Counted from the first letter of the stretch, positions 24,253 through 52,741 are shown. The stretch is 64,000 nt of DNA from an uncultured Candidatus Saccharibacteria bacterium (GCA_964354975.1 CAYHBS010000003.1:4086-68085), one strand, 5' to 3'. Notes: generated by a model from the sequence alone, not told the origin. Translations and numbers: made by a program.

Positions 24253-25361
24253 AGCAATTTCACATCAGTAAGCGTGATCGGGGAAAACTGGGTCAGTGCG
24301 TGCATTACTTGCTTCCCAACGAGCTCTGCATAATCCTGAGCAAGTGCGCCCGGAATCAGTGCACGTGGGCGCATAGCCGCAAGATCTGTCTCCTCAATAG
24401 TCTCTCCCTCACGGATATCCCGCACTACCACGAGCGACTTATTAAAAAATGGGCGAAATGTATTATGCGCCCCTTCAAATTCTTTATCAATATCCCCATA
24501 AAAGGCCTCTGGAGATGCCGCTACATATGTCCCTGAGCGCACGGCGCGTACTAGTTCCTTCATTTCATGGGGTAACATGGACACCTTATGATCCGGCCCC
24601 CACGCATCACGCGACAAACTAAAATGTTTTTCTATCATTCTCGCCCCTATTTTGATCGCGGCAAGTGCAACGTCCATTCCAAGCGAATGATCGGAAAAAC
24701 CAACAATTGCATGTGGGTACGCGTCCTTCAGATACTGAATTGATGCTAAGTTAAATACTTCAGGTGGACATGGGTATTGGCTCACACAATACAGTATAAT
24801 CGGAGTTACCCGTGCGCGTGCCAAGTGCTGCATCACTGCCTGTAACTCTTGTCGGCTCACCATTCCCGTGGAAATGATGATGGGTTTTTTGAAACTCACA
24901 AGGGTATCAAGTAGAAGATAATCTAGTACGTCCGCAGATCCTACTTTCCATAGTGACATGCCGAGTTCAGACATTTGGATTGCAGCTCCTTTACTCATGG
25001 GAGTGGTGAACATGCGCATATGCTTTTCTGCACAATATATACTGAGCGGGCGCCAAAATGCATCCATCGGAGTCTGACGCGTGTTGCGCTCAACCCATCG
25101 ATATCGATCGTTCGCAGGAAAATGTGGGGAAACAATGGGAATATTAAGTTGTTCATCAGCAACATGATGTGTCTGAAACTTCACCGCATCAACACCAGCG
25201 TCCACGGCGGCGTCCACAAGCAACTGTGCGCGACGCAGTAATGTTTCAACAGATTCTTCCTCCTCGGTCACAATAAAATTCTTTCCAATTTCAGCAACAA
25301 TAAAGACGTCCCTCCCCGATCGTCGCTCTAAATCATTCAACGTCATTGCATGCATATCCAT
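24249..25361 (-). CDS. NeuB-family nonulosonic acid synthase, copy 2
   Basis: FIVAEIGKNF...GVDAVKFQTH and a C-terminal SAF domain. Confidence 0.8.
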   Translation of the reverse strand: MDMHAMTLNDLERRSGRDVFIVAEIGKNFIVTEEEESVETLLRRAQLLVDAAVDAGVDAVKFQTHHVADEQLNIPIVSPHFPANDRYRWVERNTRQTPMDAFWRPLSIYCAEKHMRMFTTPMSKGAAIQMSELGMSLWKVGSADVLDYLLLDTLVSFKKPIIISTGMVSRQELQAVMQHLARARVTPIILYCVSQYPCPPEVFNLASIQYLKDAYPHAIVGFSDHSLGMDVALAAIKIGARMIEKHFSLSRDAWGPDHKVSMLPHEMKELVRAVRSGTYVAASPEAFYGDIDKEFEGAHNTFRPFFNKSLVVVRDIREGETIEETDLAAMRPRALIPGALAQDYAELVGKQVMHALTQFSPITLTDVKLL

Positions 25362-26803
25362 TGGTATAACGCATCCGCTACCCTTTGACTAGAGTTACCA
25401 TCCGCATATGTACATTGCTCACGTACAAGTCGCATTCTGCCATTATGATGAGTGGATGGAACGCGAAGTGTTGCGGTGATAAGATCACGCAGTTCATGTG
25501 AAGATTGAGCGAGTTGTATTCCTCCCGTCAGTATGGCATTCCGATAATGTTCCGTTCCATAGAAAAACGTTGGCGAACGAAGCGGATTGATATTTTTGCG
25601 CAACTCAAAATTAATATTAATCACAGGAATATCAAGTATTGCAGCGTCGATCGAAAAACTCGAAGCGTAACATACTACGAGGGCTGCATTTGAAAGCGTT
25701 TCTCGCAGTTGTTGGAGTTGCTCAAAATTCATATCCCAATCTCCACCACGATGCTTCGCAAATCGCTTTGATGGTATTTCGTACCGCAACCAGGGTCGAC
25801 GAGCAATTTCATCATCTTGGATTACATCGTTCGGAGGAAACCGTACAAATAATTTCCATGCGTACACGTCGCGCGCGTCCACTTCAAATTGATGTAAGAG
25901 ATCAATCATATCCCAATCAGAATTGCTAAATGCACTTCCAATGGGACTGTACAGCACTATGCGATCATTCGGATCACAACCAATACGTTCTCCGTGTACG
26001 GCTCGGCTCGCATATGGTGGTAGTTGATGTCCATAAAACGTAGCTACTTCATGGAGAGCCTCCGGACGCACGTACATATCATATTGTGGAAGCCCCACGG
26101 TACGTATGCGGCTCGGAGGAACATCTTGAAATCGTTCCATTTGCGTCACTAATACATCGTTGTACACCGTGTATTGATCTGTTAGTACACGCATTGCGGA
26201 GCGCGCAGTAATTTTATCCCAACTATTCATATAGCCCACCGTGCGTATTCCCATGCGGCGCGCTTCTTTTATCAATTCAACTTCGTCAGGATCCATTTGA
26301 TTTGCGATCATCACGAGATTTGGTCGAATAGACGAAAGAATTTCTTGATAGAAATTTCCAGTGTTGATACTCGCGTCCAATCTTCGGATAGTAGCGCGTA
26401 TGAATGGACGCGCGAGAAGAAAGTGTAAAATAAGTTTATAGTAATAAAATACTATGCCTCCCTTTGTGGCGCTCAGCATACGCGCGCGGAGTGTCGTCGT
26501 GCGAGAGCGCAACATATAATACCGGAGTATTTCAAATGTGTGCTCTCTCCAGTCCGTTTTCCCTGCTCTCCCTGAGTGCACAATAAATTGTATGCGCTCG
26601 TGTTGTATTTCATGGCGGTAGTACTCTAATCGTTCCTGATTTTTTACTAACATCACAACGCGGACATCTTCGTGTTTCAGTAAGTGCATCATGACTCCTG
26701 TGCGTAACAAATTTTTCCCTTCGATACCTTCAAAGATGGGAAGTAGGAGCGTATACGTGGTGGGCACAGTGTGTGTATGCATGAACTCGTTAGCCTTCAT
26801 CAT
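25343..26803 (-). CDS. TagF-like (CDP-glycerol glycerophosphotransferase-like) GT-B family protein, paralog 1
   Basis: Shares family motifs with the three other paralogs: G(I/V)R(T/V)(V/I)G(Y/M)xxSWD(K/N)(I/L); GLPQYDMY; VVCYASSFSIDAAILDIPVININFE (DYSS-like region of Glyphos_transf); C-terminal REQC. Confidence 0.45.
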   Translation of the reverse strand: MMKANEFMHTHTVPTTYTLLLPIFEGIEGKNLLRTGVMMHLLKHEDVRVVMLVKNQERLEYYRHEIQHERIQFIVHSGRAGKTDWREHTFEILRYYMLRSRTTTLRARMLSATKGGIVFYYYKLILHFLLARPFIRATIRRLDASINTGNFYQEILSSIRPNLVMIANQMDPDEVELIKEARRMGIRTVGYMNSWDKITARSAMRVLTDQYTVYNDVLVTQMERFQDVPPSRIRTVGLPQYDMYVRPEALHEVATFYGHQLPPYASRAVHGERIGCDPNDRIVLYSPIGSAFSNSDWDMIDLLHQFEVDARDVYAWKLFVRFPPNDVIQDDEIARRPWLRYEIPSKRFAKHRGGDWDMNFEQLQQLRETLSNAALVVCYASSFSIDAAILDIPVININFELRKNINPLRSPTFFYGTEHYRNAILTGGIQLAQSSHELRDLITATLRVPSTHHNGRMRLVREQCTYADGNSSQRVADALYQWICMQ

Positions 26804-26848
26804 AATGAAAGAATGGGGAACACCGCAAACGCGACGCTCCCCATATTG

Positions 26849-27956: not shown

Positions 27957-28700
27957 TTATACTGAAAATATCTTTTCGTCAAGATTTTTAGGAGTAAGTC
28001 CCTGTTCGGTCACCAGACGCTCTGCACGCTGAAAATCATTTTCTGTATCAATATTGATAGATTCTTCGGCGGTCATCGCGTATCCAAGTATACGTTTCCC
28101 CGTCATAGAACGCTGCTGCAGAATCGTTTCTGTCCAAAAGGCGTTCATGCAGCCATTATTTTGATAGATAGACGGAAGCGCTTGCCGAGGCATATTAAAT
28201 GGATCGGCAATATGTTCGGGATTTTCGGAAAACAGTGGTATAAGCATATCACTTTCCATTCTCCACATTTTATATGGATGTTTTTCAACGACAGTAACGG
28301 CACGCACTGAATCTGCTCTTTCCTTCCCTGCGCGATCAAGTAGCTCAATACCCTCACTGATGCGACGCGCACCGCGAAATGGAGAGGTTGCTCGGAGATC
28401 AACAATCATATCCGGCATGTCCGATACATAAGCACACAAATAGTCAGTGAACACCTCAAGATCAGTTGTGAGATCTGCCCCAAGGTGCGGTGCACGACGA
28501 TAGACTTTTGCGCCAAAAGAACTTGCAACATTCGCAATTTCTTCATCATCCGTATTCACTACAATATCACAAATTGCAGGCACACGGCGTGCGGCAAGAA
28601 TCGTCCATGCAATGAGGGGCACGGATCCGAGCGTGCGAATATTCTTTCGAGGCACTCCCTTTGAACCGCCCCGGGCAGGAATCACCGCGATAGCCTTCAT
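27957..28700 (-). CDS. acylneuraminate cytidylyltransferase family (CMP-NulO synthetase), copy 2
   Basis: MKAIAVIPARGGSKGVPRKNI. Confidence 0.8.
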   Translation of the reverse strand: MKAIAVIPARGGSKGVPRKNIRTLGSVPLIAWTILAARRVPAICDIVVNTDDEEIANVASSFGAKVYRRAPHLGADLTTDLEVFTDYLCAYVSDMPDMIVDLRATSPFRGARRISEGIELLDRAGKERADSVRAVTVVEKHPYKMWRMESDMLIPLFSENPEHIADPFNMPRQALPSIYQNNGCMNAFWTETILQQRSMTGKRILGYAMTAEESINIDTENDFQRAERLVTEQGLTPKNLDEKIFSV

Positions 28701-30256
28701 GCAATCACCTCGTCGGCGTCATCAAACTGGTGACGCCCCCAATTCATCAATTTTGTTTTACGATCTTCCCGAGGAATATTTGCAATGCGACGATCAATAT
28801 AAAATGAGTCCCCTTGTGTTTCCATGGCGGTGGTGGAAACCTCTTCCACGATGACTCCCGTTTCCGTCCAGAAAGAATGCCACACACCACGAGGCACCCA
28901 TAATGTATCCCCTGGAGTCAGTAAGCGTGTCTTTCCCTCAATCTCCGCAATGAGCTCCCCAGAAAGAACGTGGAATGTTTCGTCTTTTGCCTTATGATAG
29001 TGCGTTGGGTTCATCTGACCTGGAAACTGAATGATGAGTTTCTTTGCGTACTCACGGTTAATACAATCAATAATCATACATCCAGTAGTATGAAATTGTC
29101 CGAGCCCATAGTGGTGTGAAAGTTCAACTTTAAAATCATGGCTAAGTGGAATTTTTGCTTCGTTGAGCATGCCCTTTGCAATATGAATTGCGGAATAGAC
29201 CACATCCTTCTTTGTTCGGTGTTTCGGTGCAACCACGGCACTGATTGCGGTATCTTTTTTATAGTCTCTGTCAGCAATAAGTCCTTTCTTAAATGATCCG
29301 CTGGTGAGCTGCCCCGGTTGTAGCGGCATCGCAAAATATACTTGGGAGCGATCAATCACTGAACCAGCCAAAATATCCTCGGAAACAAATACTCCGCGCA
29401 TCAATGAATCAAGATCTGCACGCTCCACATCGGCAATCATTCGCTCCTTATTCTCTCCGATTGCCGCAACTGCTTCCTGATATGCCTGTAACCATTTTTT
29501 CACCTGTTTTGGCGTCGCGGAATATGCATTTAATTTAATAGTATCAGTGGCAACACCTACGTGCTTTTCAAAAATTCTGGCTCCACGCGCATAGGCAAGT
29601 CCGATTGCAGTAGTATTATTCGGATCTTCATGCGTTGAAAATCCAATAATAATATGCGGGTATCTCGCTTTTAATTTCGCGATATGATCTAAATGCAACG
29701 CATCAATAGGCGTTGGATACTGCGCAACACAATGCATTAGTGCAAAATTGATTCCGCGATGTTCGAAGAAGCTAACAATCTTATCAACGTCGTGAAGTAA
29801 CAATCCACCAGTGGAAACAATAACTGGCTTTCCAGTAGAAGCGATTTCCTCCAGCAGTGGCCAATCGTGCGCGGAGCAACTTGCCACCTTTATAATATCT
29901 ACCCCAAGATCAACTGCGACTTTGACAGAGCGCTCATCAAAGGGGGTCGCCATAGCCAGTAGACCAAGCTTTTTTGCTGTATTCAGTAATTCTTTAAACT
30001 GCTCGGTGGTGAGACGTGTATCCAAAAAACGAGGAATGTGCTTAATATCCTTCCGATTCGTGTAGCTGGGGTGAATAAACGTATCAAGGTCTCGAAGCTG
30101 AATCTTGATTGCCCCACGCACATGCATTTCTTTGGCAACCGTCGCAATCTCCTGGATTATGCGTGCTCCATGCTCCATGCTCCCTTGGTGATTATTCGCC
30201 ATTTCAAACGTAAAAAGCTCTTTGAAATCAAATTTGTTGGGTACTTGTGCGAGCAT
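28697..30256 (-). CDS. NeuB-family nonulosonic acid synthase fused to a C-terminal cupin domain, copy 3
   Basis: N-terminal ~300 aa form the NeuB TIM barrel plus SAF domain. The C-terminal ~150 aa carry canonical cupin motifs: NPTHYHKAKDETFHVLSGEL (G-x5-HxH-x3-E) and PGDTLWVPRGVWHSF (PxG-x2-H). Confidence 0.7.
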   Translation of the reverse strand: MLAQVPNKFDFKELFTFEMANNHQGSMEHGARIIQEIATVAKEMHVRGAIKIQLRDLDTFIHPSYTNRKDIKHIPRFLDTRLTTEQFKELLNTAKKLGLLAMATPFDERSVKVAVDLGVDIIKVASCSAHDWPLLEEIASTGKPVIVSTGGLLLHDVDKIVSFFEHRGINFALMHCVAQYPTPIDALHLDHIAKLKARYPHIIIGFSTHEDPNNTTAIGLAYARGARIFEKHVGVATDTIKLNAYSATPKQVKKWLQAYQEAVAAIGENKERMIADVERADLDSLMRGVFVSEDILAGSVIDRSQVYFAMPLQPGQLTSGSFKKGLIADRDYKKDTAISAVVAPKHRTKKDVVYSAIHIAKGMLNEAKIPLSHDFKVELSHHYGLGQFHTTGCMIIDCINREYAKKLIIQFPGQMNPTHYHKAKDETFHVLSGELIAEIEGKTRLLTPGDTLWVPRGVWHSFWTETGVIVEEVSTTAMETQGDSFYIDRRIANIPREDRKTKLMNWGRHQFDDADEVIA

Positions 30257-30299: not shown

Positions 30300-31730
30300 T
30301 CATTTCATGAGATATTTCCCCAATAAAGGAAGGGAGCGAACTGCGGCACGGGCGTACGTGCGATCCGTTTCATTAAAGCGAAATAACGATGAAAATGGAA
30401 ACCGCTGAATAAATCCTGTGCGCACCAAATAGTAATACTTAGATATAACGACAAATCCATAGGCAAAAGTTTCTGCAATTGCAAGTCCCGAAAGCCCCAT
30501 GATTGGAACTAACCCTAGCATCGCTCCTGCACGGACCGTCTGCTCTACCAGTGATTGGGCTGCGATAAATCGCTGGCGTCGCTCTGCTACAAGAAATATA
30601 TTTGTTAATTTGGTAAATGCAAAAAGAAACACCGTAGGAAGAAGCAAATAAAATAGCGTGATGGAGTCCGTCAGATGCGGAAACAAGATGTGCACTGCGA
30701 TCGGATACCCCACCGCCCCACCACATATCAATACGATACTCAACACTACGTAGTATTTTGTTCCGAAAACAAAAATGCGATTCATACGATCTCGATCCCC
30801 TACCACGCGGGGAATCAACGCATTCAATGTCCTAGTGGGAATAACATCCTTCAAAAGTGATGTTGCCATACTTGCGACGCTGTAGATACCCACTGATGCT
30901 GTATTCAAAAATGCACGAATAATCCACGGGCGGATATTCCCGAGCATATTCCGAATTGAAGTTTCGATGATCTGCCAACCACCATATTGTTTAATGAGTC
31001 TATATAATTGTCCTCGAGGGGCAGCCGTGAAGTTCGCCCACGCTCGCGTCGTACGCAGCGCTGGCCCGAGAATTGTGAGTACCGCAATCGTCATGCCAAC
31101 AAGTTGTCCGAGCAAGAGTTGTGTAATGGTGAGTTGATCTTTGAAAAAGAAATAACCCACAAAACACACTTCACCAAATTTTTGGAGTGATGGTCGCATG
31201 GCGAGCACTTTAAACTGCAATGATGCGGAGAGTAATTGATTCAACATGCCAAGCACCCCTTGTAACACAAATATAAGTGACAATATGCGTGCCCAAAGAA
31301 AAAACTCACTCCCATATGAAGGAAGTACCTGTGGCAGCAGCATCCACACTGCCACTGCCGGAATAAGCACAAACATCATTCTAAACAATGCGTGCTCCCA
31401 GAATAATCTTTTTGCACGCGCGTGGTTACCCTCTCCAATGGCACGAGTGATTTCATTTGCAGTAATAGACGCGAAGAGATCGTGACAAATATCAGACGCG
31501 ATGGTGAACCCAGAAAGTAAGAGCTGATACAATCCCAGTTGATACAAATCGAGTGTGCGCAGGACAAAAAATGAGCCGACGAGCCCAACTCCCTTTTTGA
31601 TAAAACTCCAAAGGCCAAGATGAAATTCGCCGCCAATAAAAGTATTGAGTGAAGGCGTATTCACTTCTTCTACTGCAATGCGTTGATACACCAACACGTG
31701 TGGCGACACATCAGAATCGGGATGCATCAT
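30300..31730 (-). CDS. Wzx-type polysaccharide flippase (MOP/PST superfamily)
   Basis: 476 aa with ~12-14 TM helices and PST-like organisation. Confidence 0.65.
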   Translation of the reverse strand: MMHPDSDVSPHVLVYQRIAVEEVNTPSLNTFIGGEFHLGLWSFIKKGVGLVGSFFVLRTLDLYQLGLYQLLLSGFTIASDICHDLFASITANEITRAIGEGNHARAKRLFWEHALFRMMFVLIPAVAVWMLLPQVLPSYGSEFFLWARILSLIFVLQGVLGMLNQLLSASLQFKVLAMRPSLQKFGEVCFVGYFFFKDQLTITQLLLGQLVGMTIAVLTILGPALRTTRAWANFTAAPRGQLYRLIKQYGGWQIIETSIRNMLGNIRPWIIRAFLNTASVGIYSVASMATSLLKDVIPTRTLNALIPRVVGDRDRMNRIFVFGTKYYVVLSIVLICGGAVGYPIAVHILFPHLTDSITLFYLLLPTVFLFAFTKLTNIFLVAERRQRFIAAQSLVEQTVRAGAMLGLVPIMGLSGLAIAETFAYGFVVISKYYYLVRTGFIQRFPFSSLFRFNETDRTYARAAVRSLPLLGKYLMK

Positions 31731-32717: not shown

Positions 32718-32766
32718 AGAACAACAAAATAATACAACAACGCTCGTCGTATTTTCGACGTTGTTA
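32718..32766 (-). terminator. probable terminator after the 2-hydroxyacid dehydrogenase gene
   Basis: Imperfect hairpin (AACAACG..CGTCG/CGACG..CGTTGTT) overlapping the stop, then a T-rich tract on the minus strand. Confidence 0.4.
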
Positions 32767-33750
32767 CAAACCAGATGTTCGTGAATTGTGTTTACGTTTA
32801 AAAAACTGCAGCACTATCGATGAAATGTAGCGTTGCGTACGCGCGGTTGCCTCAACGGTGGCTCCACCGAGATGAGGAAGTATGATGAGATTCTCGTGGG
32901 TCCGCGCGTATTCTACAAGATCGTTGTGTTGTAAGTGCGTCCCCAGTGGATCCTCCCCTGTCAGAGTATCAATGCCCGCACCCGCGATGCGTCGTGAGCG
33001 CAATGCGGCAAGCAATGCGCGTTCGTCAGTGAGCTCACCCCTCGCAGTATTAATGAAGAATGCACTCTGCTTCATTAACGCAAAATGTTTTTGTTGCAAC
33101 ATACCAATGTTCGCGTCATTAAACGTCGCGTGTAGAGATACAATATCAGATTTACGAAGCACCGTTTCTAGCGACACTTTGGTTGCGTGGTCGGCCCGGA
33201 TACGAGAACTTGCAATCTTTGGATCATATGCGATCACACGCATACCAAACGCACGTCCGTACTGCGCAACCATACGCCCAAGTCGGCCATACCCAATGAT
33301 ACCGAGTGTTTTTCCCTTTAGTTCAATCCCGGCGTACTTGCGTCGATCCCATACTCCCTGCTTTATTTGATCGAATGCCCAAGGAATGTTTCTTGTGAGC
33401 GAAAGAATGAGTGCAAAGGCCTCTTCTGCGGTAGATGTTGTTTGTTGTAATACTGCAGAATCGGGCTTAATGTGTAACACTGTAATTCCGTTTGTCGAAC
33501 AGTACGTCAAATCAATGTAGCGTAATTGGGTGGTACGCGACCCTATCACGCGAAGACGTGTGGCCTTTTTGAGTAGCGTTGCATCACATCGCACATCGAT
33601 GCCAGTAATCAGCGCATCAGCACTTCGTAAGGCGCGAAGAAATGTTGCGCCTGAAGTCGCCACCGTGACATTCGCCTTCTTTCGCAACAGCGCTCGCGCT
33701 GTTGCATCAAACTGATTTTCCGCAACAAGAATGTTTATCTGTTTTTGCAT
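32764..33750 (-). CDS. D-isomer-specific 2-hydroxyacid dehydrogenase family (PGDH/glycerate-DH-like)
   Basis: GKTLGIIGYGRLG NAD-binding motif and the catalytic-domain organisation. Confidence 0.7.
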   Translation of the reverse strand: MQKQINILVAENQFDATARALLRKKANVTVATSGATFLRALRSADALITGIDVRCDATLLKKATRLRVIGSRTTQLRYIDLTYCSTNGITVLHIKPDSAVLQQTTSTAEEAFALILSLTRNIPWAFDQIKQGVWDRRKYAGIELKGKTLGIIGYGRLGRMVAQYGRAFGMRVIAYDPKIASSRIRADHATKVSLETVLRKSDIVSLHATFNDANIGMLQQKHFALMKQSAFFINTARGELTDERALLAALRSRRIAGAGIDTLTGEDPLGTHLQHNDLVEYARTHENLIILPHLGGATVEATARTQRYISSIVLQFFKRKHNSRTSGL

Positions 33751-34436
33751 AGCTGCGAAGCAATGGAGAGATCATCCGGATCATTAATATCGTATGCGCT
33801 GATCACATCAATAGGAACACCCACTCGCTTCCCGACCTCTAGTTTCCGCTCGCTCAACAGCGGGCCGCTGCGCACCCAATAGAGATTCCCAAATGCCCAG
33901 TATGGTGTATCGGACTGCCTTGTGGGGTGCGCATAGTGGTCACGCTCAGACACAAATGTAAGGATACCAGACTCATCCATTGCGCGAATATGAAACGGGT
34001 GAAAAATACGCGGCACGGGTACGATGGTTATGCCAGAATCCGCCTGCTCACGAAGCATGCGTTCGTACACTGCATCGATTTGTGCCGATGTGACAAATGG
34101 AGACGTTGGTTGCACAACCACAACATACTCCGGCATGTCATTTTCGTGATCTCTCATCCATTCCACAGCATGCACAATTGGATCAACACCGGGTGTAGCA
34201 TCCGTTGAAAGTTCTGTTGGGCGCATAAACGGCACTTCTACTCCAAGCGACGCAGCAACCTGCGCAATTTCCGCATCATCGGTAGAAACGATAATGCGCT
34301 CTACAGATGATGCGCCCTTGAGTGCGCGAATGACATGTCCAACGAGAGGCACCCCGCAGAGCGGAACAATATTTTTTTTAGGTATCGATTTTGAGCCCCC
34401 TCGTGCGGGAATAATTGCGACGGTACGCGTGGCCAT
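33735..34436 (-). CDS. acylneuraminate cytidylyltransferase family (CMP-NulO synthetase), copy 3
   Basis: MATRTVAIIPARGGSKSIPKKNI. ATG 34436 lies 1 nt from the upstream stop. Confidence 0.8.
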   Translation of the reverse strand: MATRTVAIIPARGGSKSIPKKNIVPLCGVPLVGHVIRALKGASSVERIIVSTDDAEIAQVAASLGVEVPFMRPTELSTDATPGVDPIVHAVEWMRDHENDMPEYVVVVQPTSPFVTSAQIDAVYERMLREQADSGITIVPVPRIFHPFHIRAMDESGILTFVSERDHYAHPTRQSDTPYWAFGNLYWVRSGPLLSERKLEVGKRVGVPIDVISAYDINDPDDLSIASQLCKNR

Positions 34437-34437
34437 T

Positions 34438-35598
34438 TTAGTACGTAATACGTTTCTCAAGTAATGCGTGATTGAGTGCAACATGCTTCAGTACTTTGAC
34501 AATTTTTTCCGCCGCCCTTCCGTTGCCGTACACTTTTCCACACCGCTTGAGTGATATGCGAAATTCCTGATCGCGTAATGCAACAAGTAGTGCGTTAAAA
34601 ATTTCCTTTACCGTTGTCCCGGGGGTATCGATCACATTGAAATCTCTTAGTCTCCCTTGCTGTCGTTTTCCAATATTTACAGCGGGCAAACGAAACAACG
34701 GCGCCTCAATAATTCCAGAACTCGAATTGCCAATCAGCGCGCGCGCTTCGCTCATGAGACCCAGAAAATCTGGAGCATCAATATTTTTGTGCACCTGGAA
34801 TTGCGGTTCATGGCTATACATTTGTATCGCACGCACAACTCCTTCATACCCCTGATCGGAGCATGGATACACAATAATCGCACGAGTCCCCATTTCTTTT
34901 ACTGCTTTGAGTGTGCGCCTCATTTGCTCGAACGAAAGTTTTGGTTCCGTATTGACAGAGTGTTGTAATACAATGATGAATTCTTCTTTCGTGCCGAGTT
35001 GATATTTCTTTCGTGCTTCTGCCTCTTTTGTAAACATACGTGCCTTAATCAAATCGAGATGTGTATCACCAACAATATGAATACGCTTCTCCTCTTCACC
35101 CATGCGCAGGATTCTTCGCCCACTGTCATCGGTGGAAGGAAAATGAATGTGGGACATCTTCGTAATGGCGTGACGAAACACTTCGTCGAGGTTACCAGAT
35201 ACATCACCGCCCTGAATGTGAGCAACGGGGATTCCTAAATTATTTGCCGCAATAACCCCAGCAAGCACCTCTCCGCGATCGCCCAAACAAAGAAAAATAT
35301 CTGGACGCAAGCGCTTGAGCACCCGAGAGATTTCAGACAGCCCCTTCCCCAGCGCCACACTTCGCTCAACAGAGCTTCCATCTTTTTGGCCAAGATCGAT
35401 TTTTCCCTTCACGGGAAATAATTTTTCAACTTCAAGCAGCGTTTTTCCAAACTTGTCACTTAAATGCATATCCGTCACGACAAGTTGCAACTCTAACAAT
35501 GGATCTTTCTGAATAAGCTGCATGGTACGCATGAGGGCGCCAAAACCTCCGCGCTTTCCGGAAAGTACACAAATTTTTCTTTTCCGATGAGCAATCAT
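34438..35598 (-). CDS. UDP-N-acetylglucosamine 2-epimerase, hydrolysing (NeuC/LegG type), copy 2
   Basis: VAHIQGGDVSGNLDEVFRHAITKMSHIHFP. Confidence 0.8.
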   Translation of the reverse strand: MIAHRKRKICVLSGKRGGFGALMRTMQLIQKDPLLELQLVVTDMHLSDKFGKTLLEVEKLFPVKGKIDLGQKDGSSVERSVALGKGLSEISRVLKRLRPDIFLCLGDRGEVLAGVIAANNLGIPVAHIQGGDVSGNLDEVFRHAITKMSHIHFPSTDDSGRRILRMGEEEKRIHIVGDTHLDLIKARMFTKEAEARKKYQLGTKEEFIIVLQHSVNTEPKLSFEQMRRTLKAVKEMGTRAIIVYPCSDQGYEGVVRAIQMYSHEPQFQVHKNIDAPDFLGLMSEARALIGNSSSGIIEAPLFRLPAVNIGKRQQGRLRDFNVIDTPGTTVKEIFNALLVALRDQEFRISLKRCGKVYGNGRAAEKIVKVLKHVALNHALLEKRITY

Positions 35599-36347
35599 AA
35601 CGCCGGGCGAGCAACAAACTCGTAAATTACATTAACTCCAAATATTGCACGCATGCGCTCTCGGTATTTCCATGGAGTCTCGCAAAGCAGTCTTTTAATT
35701 CGTCCAAACCGGCTGCGATAAATTTTCTCATCAATAAAATATCTCTTGCTCTTAAGTTCGAATTTTGCCTGCAGTGCCTTTTTGAGCAACGTTTCCGTAA
35801 CAATCGTAATGTGATTATTCGTCGCTGAATAGCGATCTAACTCAGCGGTAAACAACATTTTTTTTCTGGCGCGCATAGAGCCGAGGTACGGAGCAGATAC
35901 AATAAAGGTTCCACTAGGCTTAATAATGCGAACTATTTCTCTTAAAAAATGAAATGGATTTTCTAAATGAGGAATAATACACCAAGCGGTAATAACATCG
36001 AAGGTGTGGTCATTCCATGTACTCTGCTCATGAGAAAAATCGAACGCACAGAATTTCTCTGTATGTTGATGCGCCTTTACTGTATCGCTGCGGTAATCAT
36101 CAATATCGCATGCGCAGATATGTCGAAATCCCAAATCCCACAGCGCATCAATAAAACTACCGTCAGCCGTGCCACAATCTAAAATTACGGCACCAGACCG
36201 CTGAGAAACGGGAATAAGCGCATCAACTGCAGGTGCGGCAAATTCATGCGAATGCCCATCATAAGAACGTAACGCCTCCACTACTACATCTTTTGCGTGA
36301 CCACGCAATTCCGATGCATTATAATATTCAATCTGTTTTTTATTCAT
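35595..36347 (-). CDS. class I SAM-dependent methyltransferase
   Basis: ILDCGTADGSF motif I; Methyltransf_11-like. Confidence 0.65.
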   Translation of the reverse strand: MNKKQIEYYNASELRGHAKDVVVEALRSYDGHSHEFAAPAVDALIPVSQRSGAVILDCGTADGSFIDALWDLGFRHICACDIDDYRSDTVKAHQHTEKFCAFDFSHEQSTWNDHTFDVITAWCIIPHLENPFHFLREIVRIIKPSGTFIVSAPYLGSMRARKKMLFTAELDRYSATNNHITIVTETLLKKALQAKFELKSKRYFIDEKIYRSRFGRIKRLLCETPWKYRERMRAIFGVNVIYEFVARPAL

Positions 36348-37692
36348 GAGTATATTTTATTAGCACCTCTGCTACGCGGCGCGAGGATGCGCCATCAAGC
36401 CGCCAACACTGCTCGCGCACAATGCGCTGTACACCATCTACGAGTTGGTCATACATTGTGTGTGAGTTCGCAATAAATGCATCTACATCCTGGGGTGTCT
36501 GCGCAATCGCTACGCCACAAGCATCGAGTATTTGTCGAACGTGTGGTGAATCACAATACCTTCGAATACTCCTTTTATAAGGCAAATTGGGTGACGTATC
36601 AAATGCAATGAGCATCATTGGTTTTGCATAGATCGCAGCGTCAATCAACATAGATGAGGGGCCAGGAAATACTACATCTGCAAATGCAAGTTCATGTATA
36701 AGCCGATCTTCATCTGCCTTGGACATCTCCCTGTCTGCCCACTCATGAGCTCTAAATACTACTCCAGGTTGGTCGATATATACCGATGGAGTTGCATCAA
36801 GTCCTTCGATGGTCACCTTTCTCGTTGGTGGTAACCGAACAATAATGTTCAATCCCGTCGCGCGCAATAAGTTAAATGCCATCTGATCAACAGGATTGTC
36901 ATGTAAAAAAATATCCCCCATAGGAGCAAACAAGACTGTTTTCCGTTTTGGATCCAATCCGAGCGAGATTAAAAAATTTTCTCTCGTGAGAGATGGTCGC
37001 CCAACATACCGATCATAATGTGGAATACCCACGACAGTGATACGCGCCGCTGGTACATCATCAAGACGCCCTGCCTGTACTGCGAGCGTGGGATTCCACA
37101 CAAGTAGCCGATTGGGGATACTGCGCATACGACCCTGACGAGTGAGATTGTCCCACGAACGCACCATACCAATAACCTGAACACCACGCTCCCTCGCTGC
37201 ATATGAGAGCGCAACATCAAATTCATTAAACACATCAGTAGCAAATACCGCACGTGGCTGATGTGCCTGAAAATACTTAGAAAATATTTCTGGAACCGAA
37301 TAGATACGATAATCAATATATCTCATGAGTCGCCGAAATAGTGACGACTTCCCCAGCACCGCAGCAGGCCCATAAAAACAGACGACGAGTAATGCATACC
37401 GCAGTGAATATGTCTGCTTTCCGTGCAGTAAGCGTGCCGCATCGATGCTCAACATCGCGCGGAATAATCGTTTGAGTAAAAAGGAAGATCTCTGCCGCGC
37501 GAGCGCATCGATCTGAATGCCCTCATATATCACTCCCTCATATGGATACGCCTGCTGAAAATACGAACGCTTCCGGTGTGGCACGAACACCACAATGCGA
37601 TACCCCGATTTAACAATTGTTGGAAGTATGTCGGTCTGGATGATATTCCTTCCAATCAACGGATGGAAGCAGCTCACAAATATAGTCGGCAT
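36340..37692 (-). CDS. TagF-like GT-B family protein, paralog 2
   Basis: GVQVIGMVRSWDNL; GIPHYDRY; VVFPGPSSMLIDAAIYAKPMMLIAFD; REQC. Confidence 0.45.
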   Translation of the reverse strand: MPTIFVSCFHPLIGRNIIQTDILPTIVKSGYRIVVFVPHRKRSYFQQAYPYEGVIYEGIQIDALARQRSSFLLKRLFRAMLSIDAARLLHGKQTYSLRYALLVVCFYGPAAVLGKSSLFRRLMRYIDYRIYSVPEIFSKYFQAHQPRAVFATDVFNEFDVALSYAARERGVQVIGMVRSWDNLTRQGRMRSIPNRLLVWNPTLAVQAGRLDDVPAARITVVGIPHYDRYVGRPSLTRENFLISLGLDPKRKTVLFAPMGDIFLHDNPVDQMAFNLLRATGLNIIVRLPPTRKVTIEGLDATPSVYIDQPGVVFRAHEWADREMSKADEDRLIHELAFADVVFPGPSSMLIDAAIYAKPMMLIAFDTSPNLPYKRSIRRYCDSPHVRQILDACGVAIAQTPQDVDAFIANSHTMYDQLVDGVQRIVREQCWRLDGASSRRVAEVLIKYTHE

Positions 37693-38672: not shown

Positions 38673-38716
38673 ATCGTGTATGCTAGAATAGCGTATTAAT
38701 GCTCCCCTGAACATCT

Positions 38717-46995: not shown

Positions 46996-46998
46996 ATG

Positions 46999-47439: not shown

Positions 47440-48373
47440 GAATGATGTGAGCGATTTGGTACGGTGCTTTCCGTTGCGACTCATAATAGGTGCGCATCAT
47501 AATTTCAGCAAGCACGCCCATAACCACGAGTTGCACACCGACGATCACAAGTAGTGCAGATAAAATCGGCAACGGAGTTGAAACAAACGTGTGCAGTCCC
47601 GAAAGTCTAAAATAAATAGCTACACTCCCTGCGATTCCCCCAAGTAGTAACGACACAAATCCAATACCACCAAAAAAGTGCATAGGACGATTCAGATACC
47701 GCGTGAGAAATTTAATCAACAATAAATCCAAAATCACCCGATAGGTGCGCCCAACACCATAATTACTCGATCCGCTCATGCGCTCTCTATAATGTACAGG
47801 CACTTCGGTCACTTTTGCTCCCTGCCAAAATGCGTACGCGGGAATAAATCGATGCATCTCTCCGTAGAGACCAATACCTCCAACGATGGATCTCCGATAT
47901 GCTTTGAGTGTGCACCCATAATCGTGCAACTTGAGCCCCGCAATGCGAGAGATAATTTCATTTGCAATAAGCGACGGGAGTTTGCGTGTTATCCATTTAT
48001 TTCTCCAGCGGTACCGGCGCCAGCCGGAAACGACATCATACCCCTCTGTAATAAGCGCAAGTAATTTTGGAATATCTGAAGGATCATTTTCCAAGTCACT
48101 GTCGATCGTAACCACAATGTCCCCTGACGAATGAGTGATCCCAGCTGACAATGCGGCAGTTTGTCCAAAATTGCGCGTAAATACAATCACCTTCACACGA
48201 CTGTCTGCGGTAGCAATATGTCGCAACGTTGTAAGACTTCCGTCACGTGATCCGTCATCAACCGCAACAAATTCAACCGCATCTCCGAAATGTCCGGATA
48301 CCGAAACCAACTCTCGATAGAGTTGTTCGAGATTTTTCTCTTCGTTATATACGGGGAAGATAATGGAAATCAT
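47417..48373 (-). CDS. GT2 polyprenyl-phosphate glycosyltransferase (DPM1/GtrB/ArnC-like) with C-terminal TM helices
   Basis: ISIIFPVYNEE..VAVDDGSRDGS...DSDLEND (DxD), then 2 C-terminal TM helices. Confidence 0.75.
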   Translation of the reverse strand: MISIIFPVYNEEKNLEQLYRELVSVSGHFGDAVEFVAVDDGSRDGSLTTLRHIATADSRVKVIVFTRNFGQTAALSAGITHSSGDIVVTIDSDLENDPSDIPKLLALITEGYDVVSGWRRYRWRNKWITRKLPSLIANEIISRIAGLKLHDYGCTLKAYRRSIVGGIGLYGEMHRFIPAYAFWQGAKVTEVPVHYRERMSGSSNYGVGRTYRVILDLLLIKFLTRYLNRPMHFFGGIGFVSLLLGGIAGSVAIYFRLSGLHTFVSTPLPILSALLVIVGVQLVVMGVLAEIMMRTYYESQRKAPYQIAHIIHDQRPHP

Positions 48374-49971
48374 GGCTTACGCTTGTATATAAGGAGGGTA
48401 CCTCCATCATTGCCCTCAGTGTATTTTCTTGGGTATACATTTTTAACTGTCTCAACAAGCTGGAATTGATTATTGAGCATAGCACGAAACGTAGCAATGC
48501 GCGCATCGGTATCTTCCCCCTCCCCCCAAAATGGGTTCCTGCGCAGTCCCTCGAACCCGGTTTCTTTATGTATTAACACCACATCGGCGTCATGTGCGAG
48601 CCAGTTATTCAGTATGTCCCAGTTATAAAACCCAATGCTGCGGATATAAGCGGTGTCTTCAGAATTTACGAAAAGGAAGTTCCGCTGCAGCAGCGGCGCA
48701 AACACTCTCCGATCAGCGAGAAAAGCGTGGTAAAGCGAGTCATCAAATGTTAAAATATTATCTTCTTTTTCCGTTAGCGCAGCAACATGCTCCGCACCAA
48801 TACGTACACGCTCAAGATCTGAAATATCATGTGGGTTCGCGATAATATCCTTTCGGTACTGCAATGTTCCATTTAACAGAATCACCGCGCACAACAATAT
48901 CATCGCGACGCTACGTTCAATCCGTATTGCTCGGTAGCTCACTACAATGAACAAGATCACAAACGGCATGAAGTAATTCGCATAATACACATTCCCTTCG
49001 AGCTTCCAATAAAAATAATGTGCGCCCATCATGCTCATTGCGTACATCCAAATGAGCAACGGGATCTTGTGATCCCGCGTATATGCGCTCCGGCGCATGC
49101 CATGTTCACGAATTATCAACACCGTTGCGACGAAGAACAGCAGCAAAAATCCATAATACTCACGCACAAAATCACTTAGGTTAGTGATAAACGAATCAAA
49201 GGTCTGCGCGAGTGTGGAAGCTTGCAACTGACTCATGATGCCTACGCTGACAATCGGACTCACTACGTCGCTCAGCGCAACGGTGGGGTTATAACGAATT
49301 ATGGGAATATATCCGAGCACAACAACAACGATAACTATGGCTGCCCACAAAGCAACGCTGCGGGCGTGGTACCTAGCCACTATCTGAAACAACAAATATG
49401 CTAGGAGTGCGGGTAAAAAATTGATACGCGAAAGCAATAGGAGTCCGAAGAGTAATCCGTTGAGCAGTGCTTTGTAGTTACGACGAATATCAATCAGTTC
49501 CACTACGACAGTGAGCATGAGTAGCAATGTTGCGAGCGCATACATCGTGACAGTGATGTAATTGGATACAAGTAGTACATTCGAAACAAGTAGCGCAGCA
49601 GCAGCCGCGGCCGCGCGTTTACCAGAAAGCCGGGCAGCTACCCACAACATCACTGCATACAGCATCACAAAAAAACAAGCAGCCAGTATGCGCCCCGCGT
49701 AGATGCTTGGACCAAACAAATACTGCACATACCCAAACGTCGGAATCACAAACGGAGGGTATGACATAATACTGTCCACATATGGCACAAACTCCCCTGT
49801 CAGTATGAGATAGCTCTTGAACGACGCGAGTATTTCATCTATCCATGTTTCGCGATAGACGAGGAGCACTGCAGACTCAATCATCAGCACTGCGCTTGCT
49901 ACGATGATAATGATTTCATCGATGTACTTGTGAAGTAAAACGAACCTCTGAGTGTGTCGTGCCACATTCAT
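48370..49971 (-). CDS. GT-C fold polytopic membrane glycosyltransferase (ArnT/PMT-like)
   Basis: 533 aa with ≥11 TM helices. It is immediately downstream of, and translationally coupled to, the GT2 polyprenyl-P sugar synthase. Confidence 0.5.
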   Translation of the reverse strand: MNVARHTQRFVLLHKYIDEIIIIVASAVLMIESAVLLVYRETWIDEILASFKSYLILTGEFVPYVDSIMSYPPFVIPTFGYVQYLFGPSIYAGRILAACFFVMLYAVMLWVAARLSGKRAAAAAAALLVSNVLLVSNYITVTMYALATLLLMLTVVVELIDIRRNYKALLNGLLFGLLLLSRINFLPALLAYLLFQIVARYHARSVALWAAIVIVVVVLGYIPIIRYNPTVALSDVVSPIVSVGIMSQLQASTLAQTFDSFITNLSDFVREYYGFLLLFFVATVLIIREHGMRRSAYTRDHKIPLLIWMYAMSMMGAHYFYWKLEGNVYYANYFMPFVILFIVVSYRAIRIERSVAMILLCAVILLNGTLQYRKDIIANPHDISDLERVRIGAEHVAALTEKEDNILTFDDSLYHAFLADRRVFAPLLQRNFLFVNSEDTAYIRSIGFYNWDILNNWLAHDADVVLIHKETGFEGLRRNPFWGEGEDTDARIATFRAMLNNQFQLVETVKNVYPRKYTEGNDGGTLLIYKRKP

Positions 49972-51365
49972 ACCGCAGAAAATAAGATATCAACGATACG
50001 CTTTCCGCTGTGGCGATCTAATGGACCGCAGACCGTATCTCTTAATTCCTTCCGTTTATCGCCGTCACTACTACCATCGCGTACATAGGTTTGAAGCGCG
50101 ACGAGCAAATCATCAAAGTTTAGAGCACGGTGCATTGCCCCAGAAAGTAATACTTCTTTAAAGTGATCCATTTGTTCAAAGCGCCGAATTGATTTGCGAT
50201 ACGGAAGCGCATGATACCCATCAAATGGAGTTGCAATGATTGGACGATCGTAGAGCGCCGCTTCAAGCACCATGGTCGTATATACCGCGAGCACAACATC
50301 CGCGTGGCGCAGGATATTCGTAAAATAGATGCTCCTGTCAAGATCTCCCCAAAATTCTTTCTCATAAATACGTACTCGAGGGTGATCTTTAAAGGTAGAA
50401 AATTTAATCTCATCAATTGTGCGATCTTTTGTCCTCCCGCTGATATACGGTCGAATGACAATGTGCATCTTCTCCCCTAATTTCCCTTCATCAATCCATC
50501 TCAGCATCGTCTCAATAATGTCTGGTTCGTGTGGACAATATGCGCTCCCCGATATGTAGAGAATATATTTCGACCCGTCGGGCAAACCTAATTGTTGAAT
50601 CAGTGAAGCACGCGGTACCGCATACGATTCGTTAAGCATAAAATCGAAGTGTGGGTATCCCACAACCCGTATTGCTGACTGATCGTATGATTGGTGTTTT
50701 ATCGCAGCTCTGCCCACTTGCGCACTCGGCACTAATAATTCGTCGACATGAAATGGTAAATAATATTTATCGAGATGATCCCAACCTGCGGGCATACCGA
50801 TGGTACGCACGCCTCGTCTATACGCTTCTGCAAGTATGTGTATATCGAATAGCCCATAAATATGAGTGGAAAAAACGAGATCTGGTCGATACGTATCAAA
50901 CAATTCTTGAAAGGGTCGCGCCGCATTAACGCGAATAAACATCTGTGGCACAAAAATATTCCGAATCCATTGAGATTTTCCAAACGTCAACGCAATACAC
51001 TGCTTGATGGGAGCAAGATATCGCTTGCCTCCTGCGGCCGGTTCATCTGGTCGAGTCCCCATTGTGGCCATGAGCGCCGTCGTATGGGTGTAAAGCAGGT
51101 AAGAATAAAAAAAATGAAATAGTTTTTCGCGCAACCGCTTGGGATATTTTACTTCAGCGTACGTGACGATACATCCCGCCGCTGTAGCTGTGGTAAAAAA
51201 TTGTTCATACTTTCCTTTTCTGCCCTCCTCAAGGAGAAACACTACGCGCACCTGCTGGGAATGCTCCTTCACATGCACTACAAGTAAATCAAGAAAGCTC
51301 CCCGGGAAAAAACAAAGGTTACGAAACGCTGCAGAAGACGCAATAGGGATAAAAATTGTTTTCAT
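49968..51365 (-). CDS. TagF-like GT-B family protein, paralog 3
   Basis: GVRTIGMPAGWDHL; GYPHFDFM; VVLAVYTTMVLEAALYDRPIIATPFDG. The start is placed at MKTIFIP (ATG 51365, 4-nt overlap with the upstream stop). Confidence 0.45.
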   Translation of the reverse strand: MKTIFIPIASSAAFRNLCFFPGSFLDLLVVHVKEHSQQVRVVFLLEEGRKGKYEQFFTTATAAGCIVTYAEVKYPKRLREKLFHFFYSYLLYTHTTALMATMGTRPDEPAAGGKRYLAPIKQCIALTFGKSQWIRNIFVPQMFIRVNAARPFQELFDTYRPDLVFSTHIYGLFDIHILAEAYRRGVRTIGMPAGWDHLDKYYLPFHVDELLVPSAQVGRAAIKHQSYDQSAIRVVGYPHFDFMLNESYAVPRASLIQQLGLPDGSKYILYISGSAYCPHEPDIIETMLRWIDEGKLGEKMHIVIRPYISGRTKDRTIDEIKFSTFKDHPRVRIYEKEFWGDLDRSIYFTNILRHADVVLAVYTTMVLEAALYDRPIIATPFDGYHALPYRKSIRRFEQMDHFKEVLLSGAMHRALNFDDLLVALQTYVRDGSSDGDKRKELRDTVCGPLDRHSGKRIVDILFSAV

Positions 51366-52741
51366 AGAGTATGTATGATTGCACGTGCAACACGTTCGGC
51401 GGACTTGCCGTCTGTCATATAACATTGCTCTTGAACAATACGCGCCCTCCCCTCACGCAGCATTGCAGGAACCTGCAATGCATCGTTGAGCGCAGTAACC
51501 ATTTCGTCGGCAGAATGCACAATAGCAATACCATTCAGTGTACGGATCTTTGCAAGATGATTCCAGTCAAAAAAACGTCGCGCAGAATTCCAGTATGGCC
51601 GCCGCAAAGCGCCATCAAACGCAACGCCGACAATCGGCTTATCCAATATTGCTGCTTCAATAAAAAATGTGGAATACATGGTGACAACGACATCGGCGTA
51701 GATAAGACTATGATGCAAAAAATTTACTGCCTCGTCTGTAAATTCCCAATTATGCACAGTGTCAGCAACGTGCCCAACAGCTGATACAACAAAAAATCGA
51801 TATGCGGACCGCATGCGTTCCATGCGTTTTTCAGAGAAATCGTAGCGAGGATATGGACGAATAAGTACGTTGACGGACTCGCTGAGTGCGTGCGCCTCAA
51901 GAGATTCATGTAAGATGCGCAAAATATCAAACTCGATATCAAGCGCTGCTTTCCCTGAAAATGCGTACAAAATGGTTTTTTTACTTGGATCTGCGCCGAT
52001 ACTGTTGAGAAATTCTTCTCGCGACATTGTCACTCGGCCCGAAAAATACCGATCATATTGGGGAATGCCCGTGATACACACGCGATTCCTTGGAAAATCG
52101 CCGTATGTTGCAGCAAGTTCAAGAATTTCCGGTGTATGTACGAGCAGCGTATCCGGATGCACACGAATGATCGTCTTACTATATAGATTATCCCAGCTTA
52201 ATATCATACCCACTACTCTCACGCCTCTCCTCCGCGCAACTTTGGCAAGAATATGATCTTCGCTATGAATGACATTGGAACAATACACGACATCAGGATT
52301 GTAGCGATCCAGCAGCGAATCAAATGTATGATCGGAGAAGCGAGCATAACTCCAACGAATCATTCTTCTCCACCATGAAAATTGGCCTAAACAACCACAC
52401 ATCACTTCCACGGGATACAAGAGCAACGTACGAATCCCATTCCACGAAAAAGAAAAATTACTTTGAAATAGATAAGTGCGTTGCATGCGCGCTGTTCTAC
52501 TATGAATACTTGCGCGTTCAATGAATTGAAAGAATGTCTCCACCACGGGTCGTTGCAATTCTGGCAATACATCGAAGGTGATCGATGACTCGGGAAATTC
52601 CAAAGCGTAATACTCTACTTTTTCCTTTGGCACTAACACCACTAATCGATCCCCCGGTTGCTCAATGATAATCCTAGCTGCGTCAGTGCGCAGAAAATTT
52701 CTTACAAAAAATCCGTCGTGTATTGCCGTCAAAATTGTCAT
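51362..52741 (-). CDS. TagF-like GT-B family protein, paralog 4
   Basis: GVRVVGMILSWDNL; GIPQYDRY; VVVTMYSTFFIEAAILDKPIVGVAFDG; QEQC. Confidence 0.45.
   Translation of the reverse strand: MTILTAIHDGFFVRNFLRTDAARIIIEQPGDRLVVLVPKEKVEYYALEFPESSITFDVLPELQRPVVETFFQFIERASIHSRTARMQRTYLFQSNFSFSWNGIRTLLLYPVEVMCGCLGQFSWWRRMIRWSYARFSDHTFDSLLDRYNPDVVYCSNVIHSEDHILAKVARRRGVRVVGMILSWDNLYSKTIIRVHPDTLLVHTPEILELAATYGDFPRNRVCITGIPQYDRYFSGRVTMSREEFLNSIGADPSKKTILYAFSGKAALDIEFDILRILHESLEAHALSESVNVLIRPYPRYDFSEKRMERMRSAYRFFVVSAVGHVADTVHNWEFTDEAVNFLHHSLIYADVVVTMYSTFFIEAAILDKPIVGVAFDGALRRPYWNSARRFFDWNHLAKIRTLNGIAIVHSADEMVTALNDALQVPAMLREGRARIVQEQCYMTDGKSAERVARAIIHTL

Follow-up and report, generated by a model that had tools for sequence, protein, structure and literature searches.

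Which enzymes attach the nonulosonic acids of a glycan whose locus encodes three enzymes for activating such sugars and no recognisable sialyltransferase? This question is raised by a stretch of 64,000 nucleotides, here called the window and used for all coordinates, from an uncultured Candidatus Saccharibacteria bacterium (GCA_964354975.1 CAYHBS010000003.1:4086-68085), a Patescibacteria metagenome-assembled genome recovered from Hainich groundwater. Beside its three synthetases for CMP (cytidine monophosphate)-activated nonulosonic acids (NulO), the window holds four paralogous genes, designated A to D, whose products resemble TagF and the glycosyltransferases (GT) of the GT-B type. From gene context and homology we consider it reasonably probable that paralogs A–D are glycosyltransferases whose donors are CMP-activated nonulosonic acids or related ulosonic acids. 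Within the TagF/TagB (PF04464) GT-B superfamily they fall into a large branch, as yet uncharacterised, which we name SWD-type after its invariant Ser-Trp-Asp. We give an even chance to a broader proposal: that the SWD-type proteins are an unrecognised, phylum-spanning family of CMP-NulO transferases (Patescibacteria, Alpha- and Betaproteobacteria, ~1,800 clusters), built on the TagF scaffold with a His-to-Asp swap and constituting the main missing NulO transferase of these organisms.

The four paralogs and their relation to TagF

A mechanical listing and translation of open reading frames (ORFs) places the four genes where a preliminary description of this DNA had put them, all on the minus strand and with agreeing translations. 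The mechanical ORF of paralog C extends to 51425; a start at 51365 (MKTIF...) agrees with the N-terminus of the family and overlaps the stop of paralog D by 4 nt, and public gene calls also give 465 amino acids (aa). Pairwise BLASTP comparisons of A–D returned E values from 2e-18 (A–C) to 3e-59 (B–D), with 22–30% identity over nearly the full length, and the paralogy is well above chance. The motif set that had been noted by eye is present almost throughout in a MAFFT alignment. The four proteins have in common G(V/I)(R/Q)x(V/I)G(M/Y)x3(S/G)WD(N/H/K)(L/I), with a slight deviation in paralog A (GIRTVGYMNSWDKI), as well as (V/T)G(I/L/Y)P(Q/H)(Y/F)D and the block AD/ALVV...(Y)(S/T)(S/T)xxx(D/E)AA...P, while the C-terminal (R/Q)EQC is found in A, B and D and is replaced by DTVC in C. 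The basic N-terminal region of the same description is also there: residues 76–160 hold 10–15 K+R vs 5–6 D+E in each of the four.

The Pfam threshold of PF04464 (Glyphos_transf; 22.1 bits) is passed by D (45.9 bits) and C (36.2 bits), whereas A (14.6 bits) and B (11.9 bits) fall short. No other transferase family in Pfam matched paralogs A–D at E <= 1; PF07388, PF07922 and PF11477, which represent GT38, GT52 and GT80, gave no match at this threshold, and PF05159 (Capsule_synth) did not match them either. A profile of the family matched TarL (E 1e-5) and also Cps3D in the PDB, and its hhalign alignment with a 13-sequence TagF profile reached a probability of 99.4%. In these profile alignments the C-terminal nucleotide-binding block falls on DYSS...(D/E) of TagF/TarL, which supports the likeness to the DYSS region of TagF/TagB proposed earlier. 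An AlphaFold2 model of paralog A, made with an 81-sequence alignment (pLDDT 94.6, pTM 0.92), has two Rossmann-like domains and a basic helical insertion at residues ~85–160. Its structure comparison figures were ~21 for UDP-GlcNAc (uridine diphosphate N-acetylglucosamine) 2-epimerases, 19.4 for TarL, 18.0 for TagF, 16.7 for WaaA and 15.3 for a GT38 polysialyltransferase. The predicted fold is GT-B, resembling TagF/TarL; such a fold does not by itself tell which donor is used.

Each of A–D falls into an ancient orthogroup of its own. Most database matches are A-type (~40% identity) and widespread in Patescibacteria, as are those of the paralog D orthogroup (42–52% identity), and B-type members co-occur with A-type ones in 23–25 related loci. 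When 1.84 billion cluster representatives were searched with a profile, 1,843 clusters (defined at 50% identity) passed E <= 1e-30 and 4,818 passed E <= 1e-10, the named matches being annotated as "CDP-glycerol glycerophosphotransferase family protein" (CDP, cytidine diphosphate) or "hypothetical". Some members are longer: tandem double-domain proteins of ~900 aa occur (P0241, P0254, P0263, P0267, P0268), P0258 is fused to a polysaccharide deacetylase and P0304 to a methyltransferase. The fusion partners are the commonest non-NulO neighbour families of these genes, and no fusion to a NulO synthesis enzyme was seen among the long members examined.

Could these proteins be something other than transferases? 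They might be epimerase- or hydrolase-like NulO enzymes, or modifiers of CMP-NulO, kin to the UDP-GlcNAc 2-epimerases, and this idea can draw on weak PF02350 matches in some relatives and on the embedding of the genes in NulO biosynthesis operons. We regard it as very improbable, since the sequence homology is to PF04464 and not to PF02350, and a canonical NeuC is already present in the same loci. Moreover, a locus can hold as many as four paralogs that have diverged deeply, and these as well as the tandem double-domain fusions fit the diversification of transferases; the basic helical insertion, which is like a membrane anchor, fits a lipid-linked acceptor.

Catalytic residues

Are the paralogs, then, true phosphotransferases of the TagF/TagB type, adding glycerol-, ribitol- or other alcohol-phosphate units from a CDP-activated donor to the same glycan, either as phosphodiester substituents or as chains like those of teichoic acids? 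PF04464 is their only significant family match and CDP-glycerol glycerophosphotransferase is their public annotation. Patescibacteria are regarded as monoderm-like, and teichoic-acid-like polymers are plausible in them. In TagF the WHG motif contributes the base, H444, and the pyrophosphate is contacted by H584 (PMC11666461). We used for comparison 12 classical TagF-family sequences from annotated plasmids together with TagF, TarL and Cps3D as read from PDB alignments; the variant sequences 3L7J and 3L7M agree with both histidine positions of TagF, and WH(G/A) is found in 12 of the 12 classical sequences. Residue numbers are those of paralog A; the A-type alignment comprises 81 sequences and the three branches (A-type, D-type and proteobacterial) ~294.

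No conserved N-domain histidine of the WHG type (TagF H444, TarL H300) was found in this family: histidine reaches at least 50% only at position 168 (48/81 A-type sequences), where paralogs A–D have N, D, H and N. The column of TagF H584, within (K/R)-x-H-(P/Y) and aligned by hhalign with high confidence, corresponds to position 323, which is P, P, Y and Y in A–D, Q in 41 and P in 34 of the 81 A-type sequences, and Y in 104 and H in 14 D-type sequences. The GxPRxD motif aligns to G-(I/L/Y)-P-(Q/H)-(Y/F)-D, and its Arg position is occupied by Q in 69, H in 9 and R in none of the 81. The three features which define TagF catalysis are thus missing, and the paralogs are not bona fide TagF proteins. 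A histidine in the H584 column is kept by the proteobacterial branch, as R-x-H-P in 95/95 sequences, and R-x-H-P is also seen in a minority of D-type members. Because the proteobacterial branch and TagF/TarL both keep it, the HP histidine is probably ancestral and was then lost in most Patescibacteria members.

What has been conserved instead of these residues? The A-type sequences are invariant at W195-D196, G237, D242, G289, P393, F399 and H419, and S-W-D, G237, D242, R321, P324, H419 and R456 vary little or not at all across the ~294 sequences of the three branches. The place of WHG in this family depends on the method: hhalign, which has low confidence in the N-domain, sets it at F170-D171, and the order of secondary structure elements sets it at W195-D196, where the fifth strand of the N-domain ends. 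As this mapping is of low confidence, we use a conclusion which is independent of the alignment, namely that there is no conserved N-domain histidine; under either mapping the catalytic histidine of TagF is gone from the SWD-type family. Judged by the same kind of sequence comparison, SWD-type proteins also lie outside every recognised sialyltransferase family.

Linkage to nonulosonic acid genes

The Pfam and NCBIfam scans, covering essentially all window ORFs of at least 150 aa, outline a glycan locus of ~45 kb (16.4–63.2 kb), nearly all of it on the minus strand. It contains three NeuB-family synthases, three cytidylyltransferases of the CTP_transf_3 family (PseF/NeuA/KdsB type), two bona fide NeuC enzymes, a DegT aminotransferase, several epimerases/dehydratases of the short-chain dehydrogenase/reductase (SDR) family, at least seven methyltransferases, one GT2 and about ten GT4 enzymes. 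Paralog A is flanked by a GFO/CMP-synthetase/NeuB-cupin cassette and a NeuB/NeuC/CMP-synthetase cassette, a synteny that is repeated in the related Patescibacteria locus L003; paralog B separates an LPG_synthase_TM membrane protein from a methyltransferase and the cassette of the second NeuC and third CMP-synthetase. The scanned ORFs gave no Pfam match to GT38, GT42, GT52 or GT80, to Maf or to Capsule_synth. Apart from the three CMP-NulO synthetases the window has no cytidylyltransferase; an authentic TagD, taken from a Pontibacillus plasmid and used as tblastn query, found no tagD-like gene there, and the Pfam scans were likewise without PF01467. The earlier statement that three CMP-NulO synthetases stand here with no recognisable sialyltransferase and no glycerol-3-phosphate cytidylyltransferase therefore holds for the window.

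To what extent is this neighbourhood a property of the family? Scanning one genome per species gave 80 loci anchored on the family, all from Patescibacteria. A NeuB or CMP-NulO synthetase lies within 10 kb in 38 of the 46 loci of at least 18 kb (83%). We infer that chance co-location of genes present in one to three copies would amount to a few per cent, an uncomputed figure that assumes the genome of ~1 Mb typical of Patescibacteria. Unbiased clustering of all ORFs in the 80 loci ranked as the most frequent neighbours CTP_transf_3 (50/80), NeuC (47/80), NeuB (46/80), SDR epimerases (36/80), a 2-hydroxyacid dehydrogenase (31/80), a methyltransferase (29/80), a FabG-like SDR (23/80), a polysaccharide deacetylase (18/80) and a GT9-like family (16/80). 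No family of a CDP-alcohol pathway is in this ranked list, and tagD-like genes occur in 3 of the 80 loci. The reverse test used metagenome loci anchored on the orthogroup of the second NeuB, with family members called by a hidden Markov model: 17 of the 24 loci that span 18 kb or more hold an SWD-type member. With the length limit set at 12 kb (35 loci), SWD-type is the commonest transferase-like family (19 loci, 39 genes), GT4 being found in 8 and GT2 in 7.

The same linkage is seen in Proteobacteria. A tblastn search of plasmids with paralog A gave no match, and that with paralog D found a homolog of 464 aa on a Rhizobium sp. WL3 replicon (hmmsearch E 4e-45 vs the family profile), located downstream of neuB-kpsF-GT8-neuC-neuA after a gap of 172 bp. 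In Herbaspirillum the homolog directly follows a neuA-type (CMP-NulO synthetase) gene and overlaps its end; in Polaromonas it is three genes downstream of the CMP-NulO synthetase gene, with a flippase, a GT2 and a small ORF in between; and in a Rickettsiales metagenome-assembled genome and an unassigned metagenome contig it stands between neuC and the CMP-synthetase gene. All five contexts are thus beside NulO genes, three of them abut the CMP-synthetase gene and two of these three place the homolog between neuC and the synthetase. The proposed link to NulO is therefore upheld: it recurs across 80 species of Patescibacteria, in metagenome loci anchored on NeuB, and among Proteobacteria. As a separate observation, the Rhizobium sp. 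WL3 plasmid encodes just upstream of neuB (L098, 2475-8324) four more "hypothetical" GT-B-like proteins of ~450–510 aa, all four with an HP motif, one of them Capsule_synth-like and one weakly matching the family profile. They may form a battery of putative ulosonic-acid transferases.

Classical PF04464 genes adjoin a gene which makes their donor, tagD in Pontibacillus (L091) and a phosphocholine cytidylyltransferase gene in Solidesulfovibrio (L096). By this rule the donor in the present case would be the product of the CTP_transf_3 enzyme, a CMP-ulosonic acid. In Segatella copri (L095) we also noted classical WHG-containing PF04464 genes next to phosphonate biosynthesis genes, and the annotation "CDP-glycerol glycerophosphotransferase" probably already spans several CMP-releasing donors. 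The donor versatility of PF04464 that the phosphocholine cytidylyltransferase and phosphonate contexts suggest could serve the phosphotransferase explanation raised above. We nevertheless hold this explanation to be unlikely, as both critical TagF histidines are absent and the Arg of GxPRxD is replaced, the window has no tagD, tarI or other cytidylyltransferase that forms a CDP-alcohol, and the best-conserved neighbours are NulO genes and not polyol-phosphate genes. The combination of TagF-typical histidines with tagD, named beforehand as a sign of true TagF enzymes, was looked for and did not emerge: both histidines are unconserved, and tagD is missing from the window and rare in the family-anchored loci.

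Is there one paralog for each kind of nonulosonic acid? The preliminary description had proposed that the paralogs transfer CMP-activated nonulosonic acids, roughly one per NulO type. Transfer of CMP-NulO is the explanation best supported by context and homology, but the second part of the proposal is not supported. The family-anchored loci have on average 2.3 paralogs vs 1.07 CMP-synthetases within 10 kb, the two numbers are uncorrelated (rho 0.05) and the commonest pattern is three paralogs with one synthetase; among the 24 NeuB-anchored loci the two correlate weakly (rho 0.45, p 0.03). It is more likely that the paralogs differ in acceptor or linkage than that they correspond one-to-one to the three NulO pathways. 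The same excess of paralogs over synthetases, together with the absence of canonical sialyltransferase motifs, could suggest that they are glycosyltransferases of the same pathway which use a UDP-, GDP- or dTDP-sugar (uridine, guanosine or deoxythymidine diphosphate) and are linked to NulO through an acceptor or product that contains it; they might, for instance, add the sugar to which the NulO is bound or one that is bound to the NulO. This seems improbable to us. The sequences are related specifically to the PF04464 clade, whose enzymes release CMP, and this relation extends to the nucleotide-binding block; the Proteobacteria hold a single copy inside a neuB-neuC-neuA operon, the typical position of a cognate transferase, and GT4 and GT2 are much less consistently tied to NulO genes.

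Proposed mechanism and its weighing

How might a TagF-like protein transfer a nonulosonic acid? In the mechanism we propose, the basic helical insertion (~85–160) would keep the enzyme on the cytoplasmic side of the membrane. The C-terminal Rossmann domain would bind the cytidine nucleotide via the (Y)SS...(D/E)AA block, and R321-x-x-P324, H419 and R456 would contact the phosphate and the carboxylate. The invariant D196 of S-W-D, in the N-terminal domain, would stand in for the catalytic histidine of TagF as the general base and activate an acceptor hydroxyl, which would attack C2 of the CMP-sugar with release of CMP. The acceptor would probably be an oligosaccharide linked to undecaprenyl phosphate, started by the Bac_transf enzyme, lengthened by GT4 and GT2 enzymes and tailored by the adjacent methyltransferases, and it would then be flipped by Wzx and passed on by the Wzy_C protein. 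The presence of the Wzx-type flippase implies that a lipid-linked oligosaccharide is built in the cytoplasm, and the Wzy_C protein is the probable last transfer step for the glycan.

Several points weigh against CMP-NulO transfer and have to be set beside it. The favoured donor is deduced from gene context and homology. The equivalence of D196 and TagF H444 relies on secondary structure order, and the low-confidence hhalign placement favours the other site. The [DE][DE]G and HP motifs are found at no shared position in paralogs A–D; the proteobacterial branch nonetheless retains R-x-H-P. Seven of the 24 NeuB-anchored loci have no family member within 10 kb, and paralog number does not track that of the CMP-synthetases, so some paralogs may use other donors. 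Lastly, deletion of SpsB in B. subtilis did not lower the legionaminic acid (Leg) on spores, and SpsB is dispensable for Leg transfer (PMC7439481), which shows that arguments from context are limited and can mislead.

If CMP-NulO transfer by this family is true, what would it change? The enzymes that attach pseudaminic acid (Pse), Leg and related nonulosonic acids are poorly known, comprising Maf and FlmG (flagellins), KpsS1 and two genetically defined Tannerella enzymes. NulO synthesis genes are widespread and many of their loci have no recognisable transferase, a gap which the SWD-type family may fill. Thousands of genes that are routinely mis-annotated as "CDP-glycerol glycerophosphotransferase" would then change annotation, the proteins would merit a CAZy family of their own, and new biocatalysts for NulO glycosides would become available. 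It would also mean that a phosphotransferase scaffold was re-tooled for glycosyl transfer with the CMP leaving group unchanged, and that ultra-small groundwater and episymbiotic Patescibacteria bear elaborate NulO-rich, multiply sialylated-like surface glycans. Homologs occur in culturable Proteobacteria (Rhizobium, Polaromonas, Herbaspirillum), in which the hypothesis can be put to a direct test.

The surrounding locus

Table 1. Paralogs A–D and the main glycan genes of the window
Feature	Coordinates	Strand	Remarks
Paralog A	25343..26803	-	486 aa, SWD-type TagF-like GT-B protein, candidate CMP-NulO transferase
Paralog B	36340..37692	-	450 aa, same SWD-type family as A
Paralog C	49968..51365	-	465 aa, SWD-type family
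Paralog D	51362..52741	-	459 aa, SWD-type family
NeuB-family NulO synthase 1	19988..21097	-	PF03102 211 bits; TIGR03569 266 bits, under cut-off
CMP-NulO synthetase 1	22379..23089	-	CTP_transf_3, PseF-like
NeuC-type hydrolysing UDP-GlcNAc 2-epimerase 1	23086..24252	-	TIGR03568 346 bits, over cut-off
NeuB-family NulO synthase 2	24249..25361	-	Directly downstream of paralog A
CMP-NulO synthetase 2	27957..28700	-	Pfam/NCBIfam
NeuB-family synthase 3	28697..30256	-	C-terminal cupin / D-lyxose(mannose)-isomerase-like fusion
CMP-NulO synthetase 3	33735..34484	-	Pfam/NCBIfam
NeuC-type epimerase 2	34438..35598	-	TIGR03568 364 bits
Wzx-type flippase	30300..31730	-	Polysacc_synt
Initiating phosphoglycosyl transferase	18601..19986	+	Bac_transf
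Wzy_C-domain membrane protein	16384..18597	-	737 aa, ligase / O-oligosaccharyltransferase-like

Other genes of the locus (Table 1) suggest what the glycan may contain. An SDR resembling UDP-sulfoquinovose synthase (21137-22306, minus strand; NCBIfam NF041015, E 2e-125, with 419 bits against a cut-off of 575) is placed between the first NeuB and the first CMP-synthetase, so that the glycan may include a sulfo-sugar or an unusual 6-modified sugar. The NeuB-cupin fusion has a GFO oxidoreductase and a CMP-synthetase as neighbours, and it recurs in L003 (5894-7453), where it is followed by a HAD phosphatase; this cassette may represent a route to a mannose-derived ulosonic acid like Kdn (2-keto-3-deoxynonulosonic acid). 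A D-2-hydroxyacid dehydrogenase (32764-33750, minus strand) is a conserved part of the NeuC/CMP-synthetase/NeuB cassette and was found in 31/80 family-anchored and 25/35 NeuB-anchored loci.

The Wzy_C protein adjoins murB and secA, an arrangement kept in the Patescibacteria loci L003 and L004, and its relatives carry tetratricopeptide repeats. In an organism which has no lipopolysaccharide it may act as an O-oligosaccharyltransferase or as a ligase of the cell wall. The LPG_synthase_TM (PF03706) membrane protein beside paralog B (37704-38714, minus strand) has a counterpart fused to Wzy_C in the proteobacterial-type locus L184 (13319-15619). Directly downstream of paralog C is a membrane protein of 533 aa (48370-49971, minus strand) with a weak PMT_2 (GT-C-like) match of 22 bits, below the cut-off, a homolog of which accompanies C/D-type members elsewhere. 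About ten tandem GT4 genes (nine minus-strand, one plus-strand), with a small methyltransferase gene among them, occupy 52738-63179, an unusually large array given that the genome is presumed to be small, as is the norm in Patescibacteria. A methyltransferase at 38717-39415 is the sole plus-strand gene within a minus-strand array of ~42 kb, and its homologs are present in 18/80 related loci.

Comparison with known systems

With TagF, TarL, TagB and TarF (3L7I, 8VA1), Cps3D and Bcs3, the SWD-type proteins share the GT-B fold and the homology found by hhalign, the G-x-P-x-x-D at the domain junction, the (D)YSS...(D/E) block, the C-terminal ...DG.S..R helix, the CMP leaving group and probably a peripheral association with the membrane. 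Unlike TagF, they have an invariant S-W-D and no WHG (His444), His584 is changed to Q/P/Y in the Patescibacteria branches and the Arg of GxPRxD to Gln/His, H419 and R456 are additional invariant residues, and the genes are tied to CMP-NulO synthetases and not to tagD/tarIJ. GT38, GT52 and GT80 are alike in GT-B fold and in linkage to neuB/neuC/neuA, and the CMP-sugar donor of these families is what we propose for SWD-type. An acidic catalytic base in the N-domain is established for all three and is proposed as D196 in SWD-type; unlike them, the paralogs have no detectable sequence similarity to these families (Pfam, E <= 1) and do not conserve D/E-D/E-G and HP. KpsS and KpsC (GT107, PF05159) also have a GT-B-like fold and CMP-ulosonic acid donors, as proposed here, and Capsule_synth-like genes share proteobacterial loci with the SWD-type homolog, but they form a separate sequence family.

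SpsB of B. subtilis, likened by domain and location, is a TagB-domain protein encoded beside the CMP-Leg pathway genes of the sps locus. In the literature we searched, PF04464/Glyphos_transf or Patescibacteria are tied to nonulosonic acids only in papers on Tannerella and on B. subtilis sps, and that on "pseudaminyltransferase" deals with Maf and KpsS-type enzymes. The closest precedent is provided by Tannerella forsythia, in which Tanf_01245 (445 aa, for a Pse derivative) and TFUB4_00887 (442 aa, for a Leg derivative) have a TagB-superfamily domain (Tomek et al. 2017, PMC5420450). Both are encoded beside CMP-Pse/CMP-Leg genes and a methyltransferase gene, and knock-out and complementation showed that they are required for the terminal Pse or Leg derivative on the S-layer O-glycan (PMC5420450). 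They were reported to have DXD, D/E-D/E-G and HP motifs, of which the last two are described as common to GT38/52/80 sialyltransferases in Freiberger 2007, as cited in that paper (PMC5420450). Neither Tannerella protein was among the matches listed in three protein searches. Compared by published description, our paralogs are like them in size (450–486 vs 442–445 aa), in the TagB/PF04464-like GT-B domain, in adjoining NeuB/NeuC/CMP-synthetase and methyltransferase genes, in the Wzx-type, lipid-linked O-glycan pathway and in CMP-NulO as presumed donor. They differ in that A–D do not have the reported DXD, D/E-D/E-G and HP motifs, and in that the Tannerella enzymes are genetically supported whereas the role of SWD-type is proposed from sequence and context. 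The TagB-like NulO transferase is thus a known, thinly documented kind of enzyme, and the SWD-type family is best described as a variant of it.

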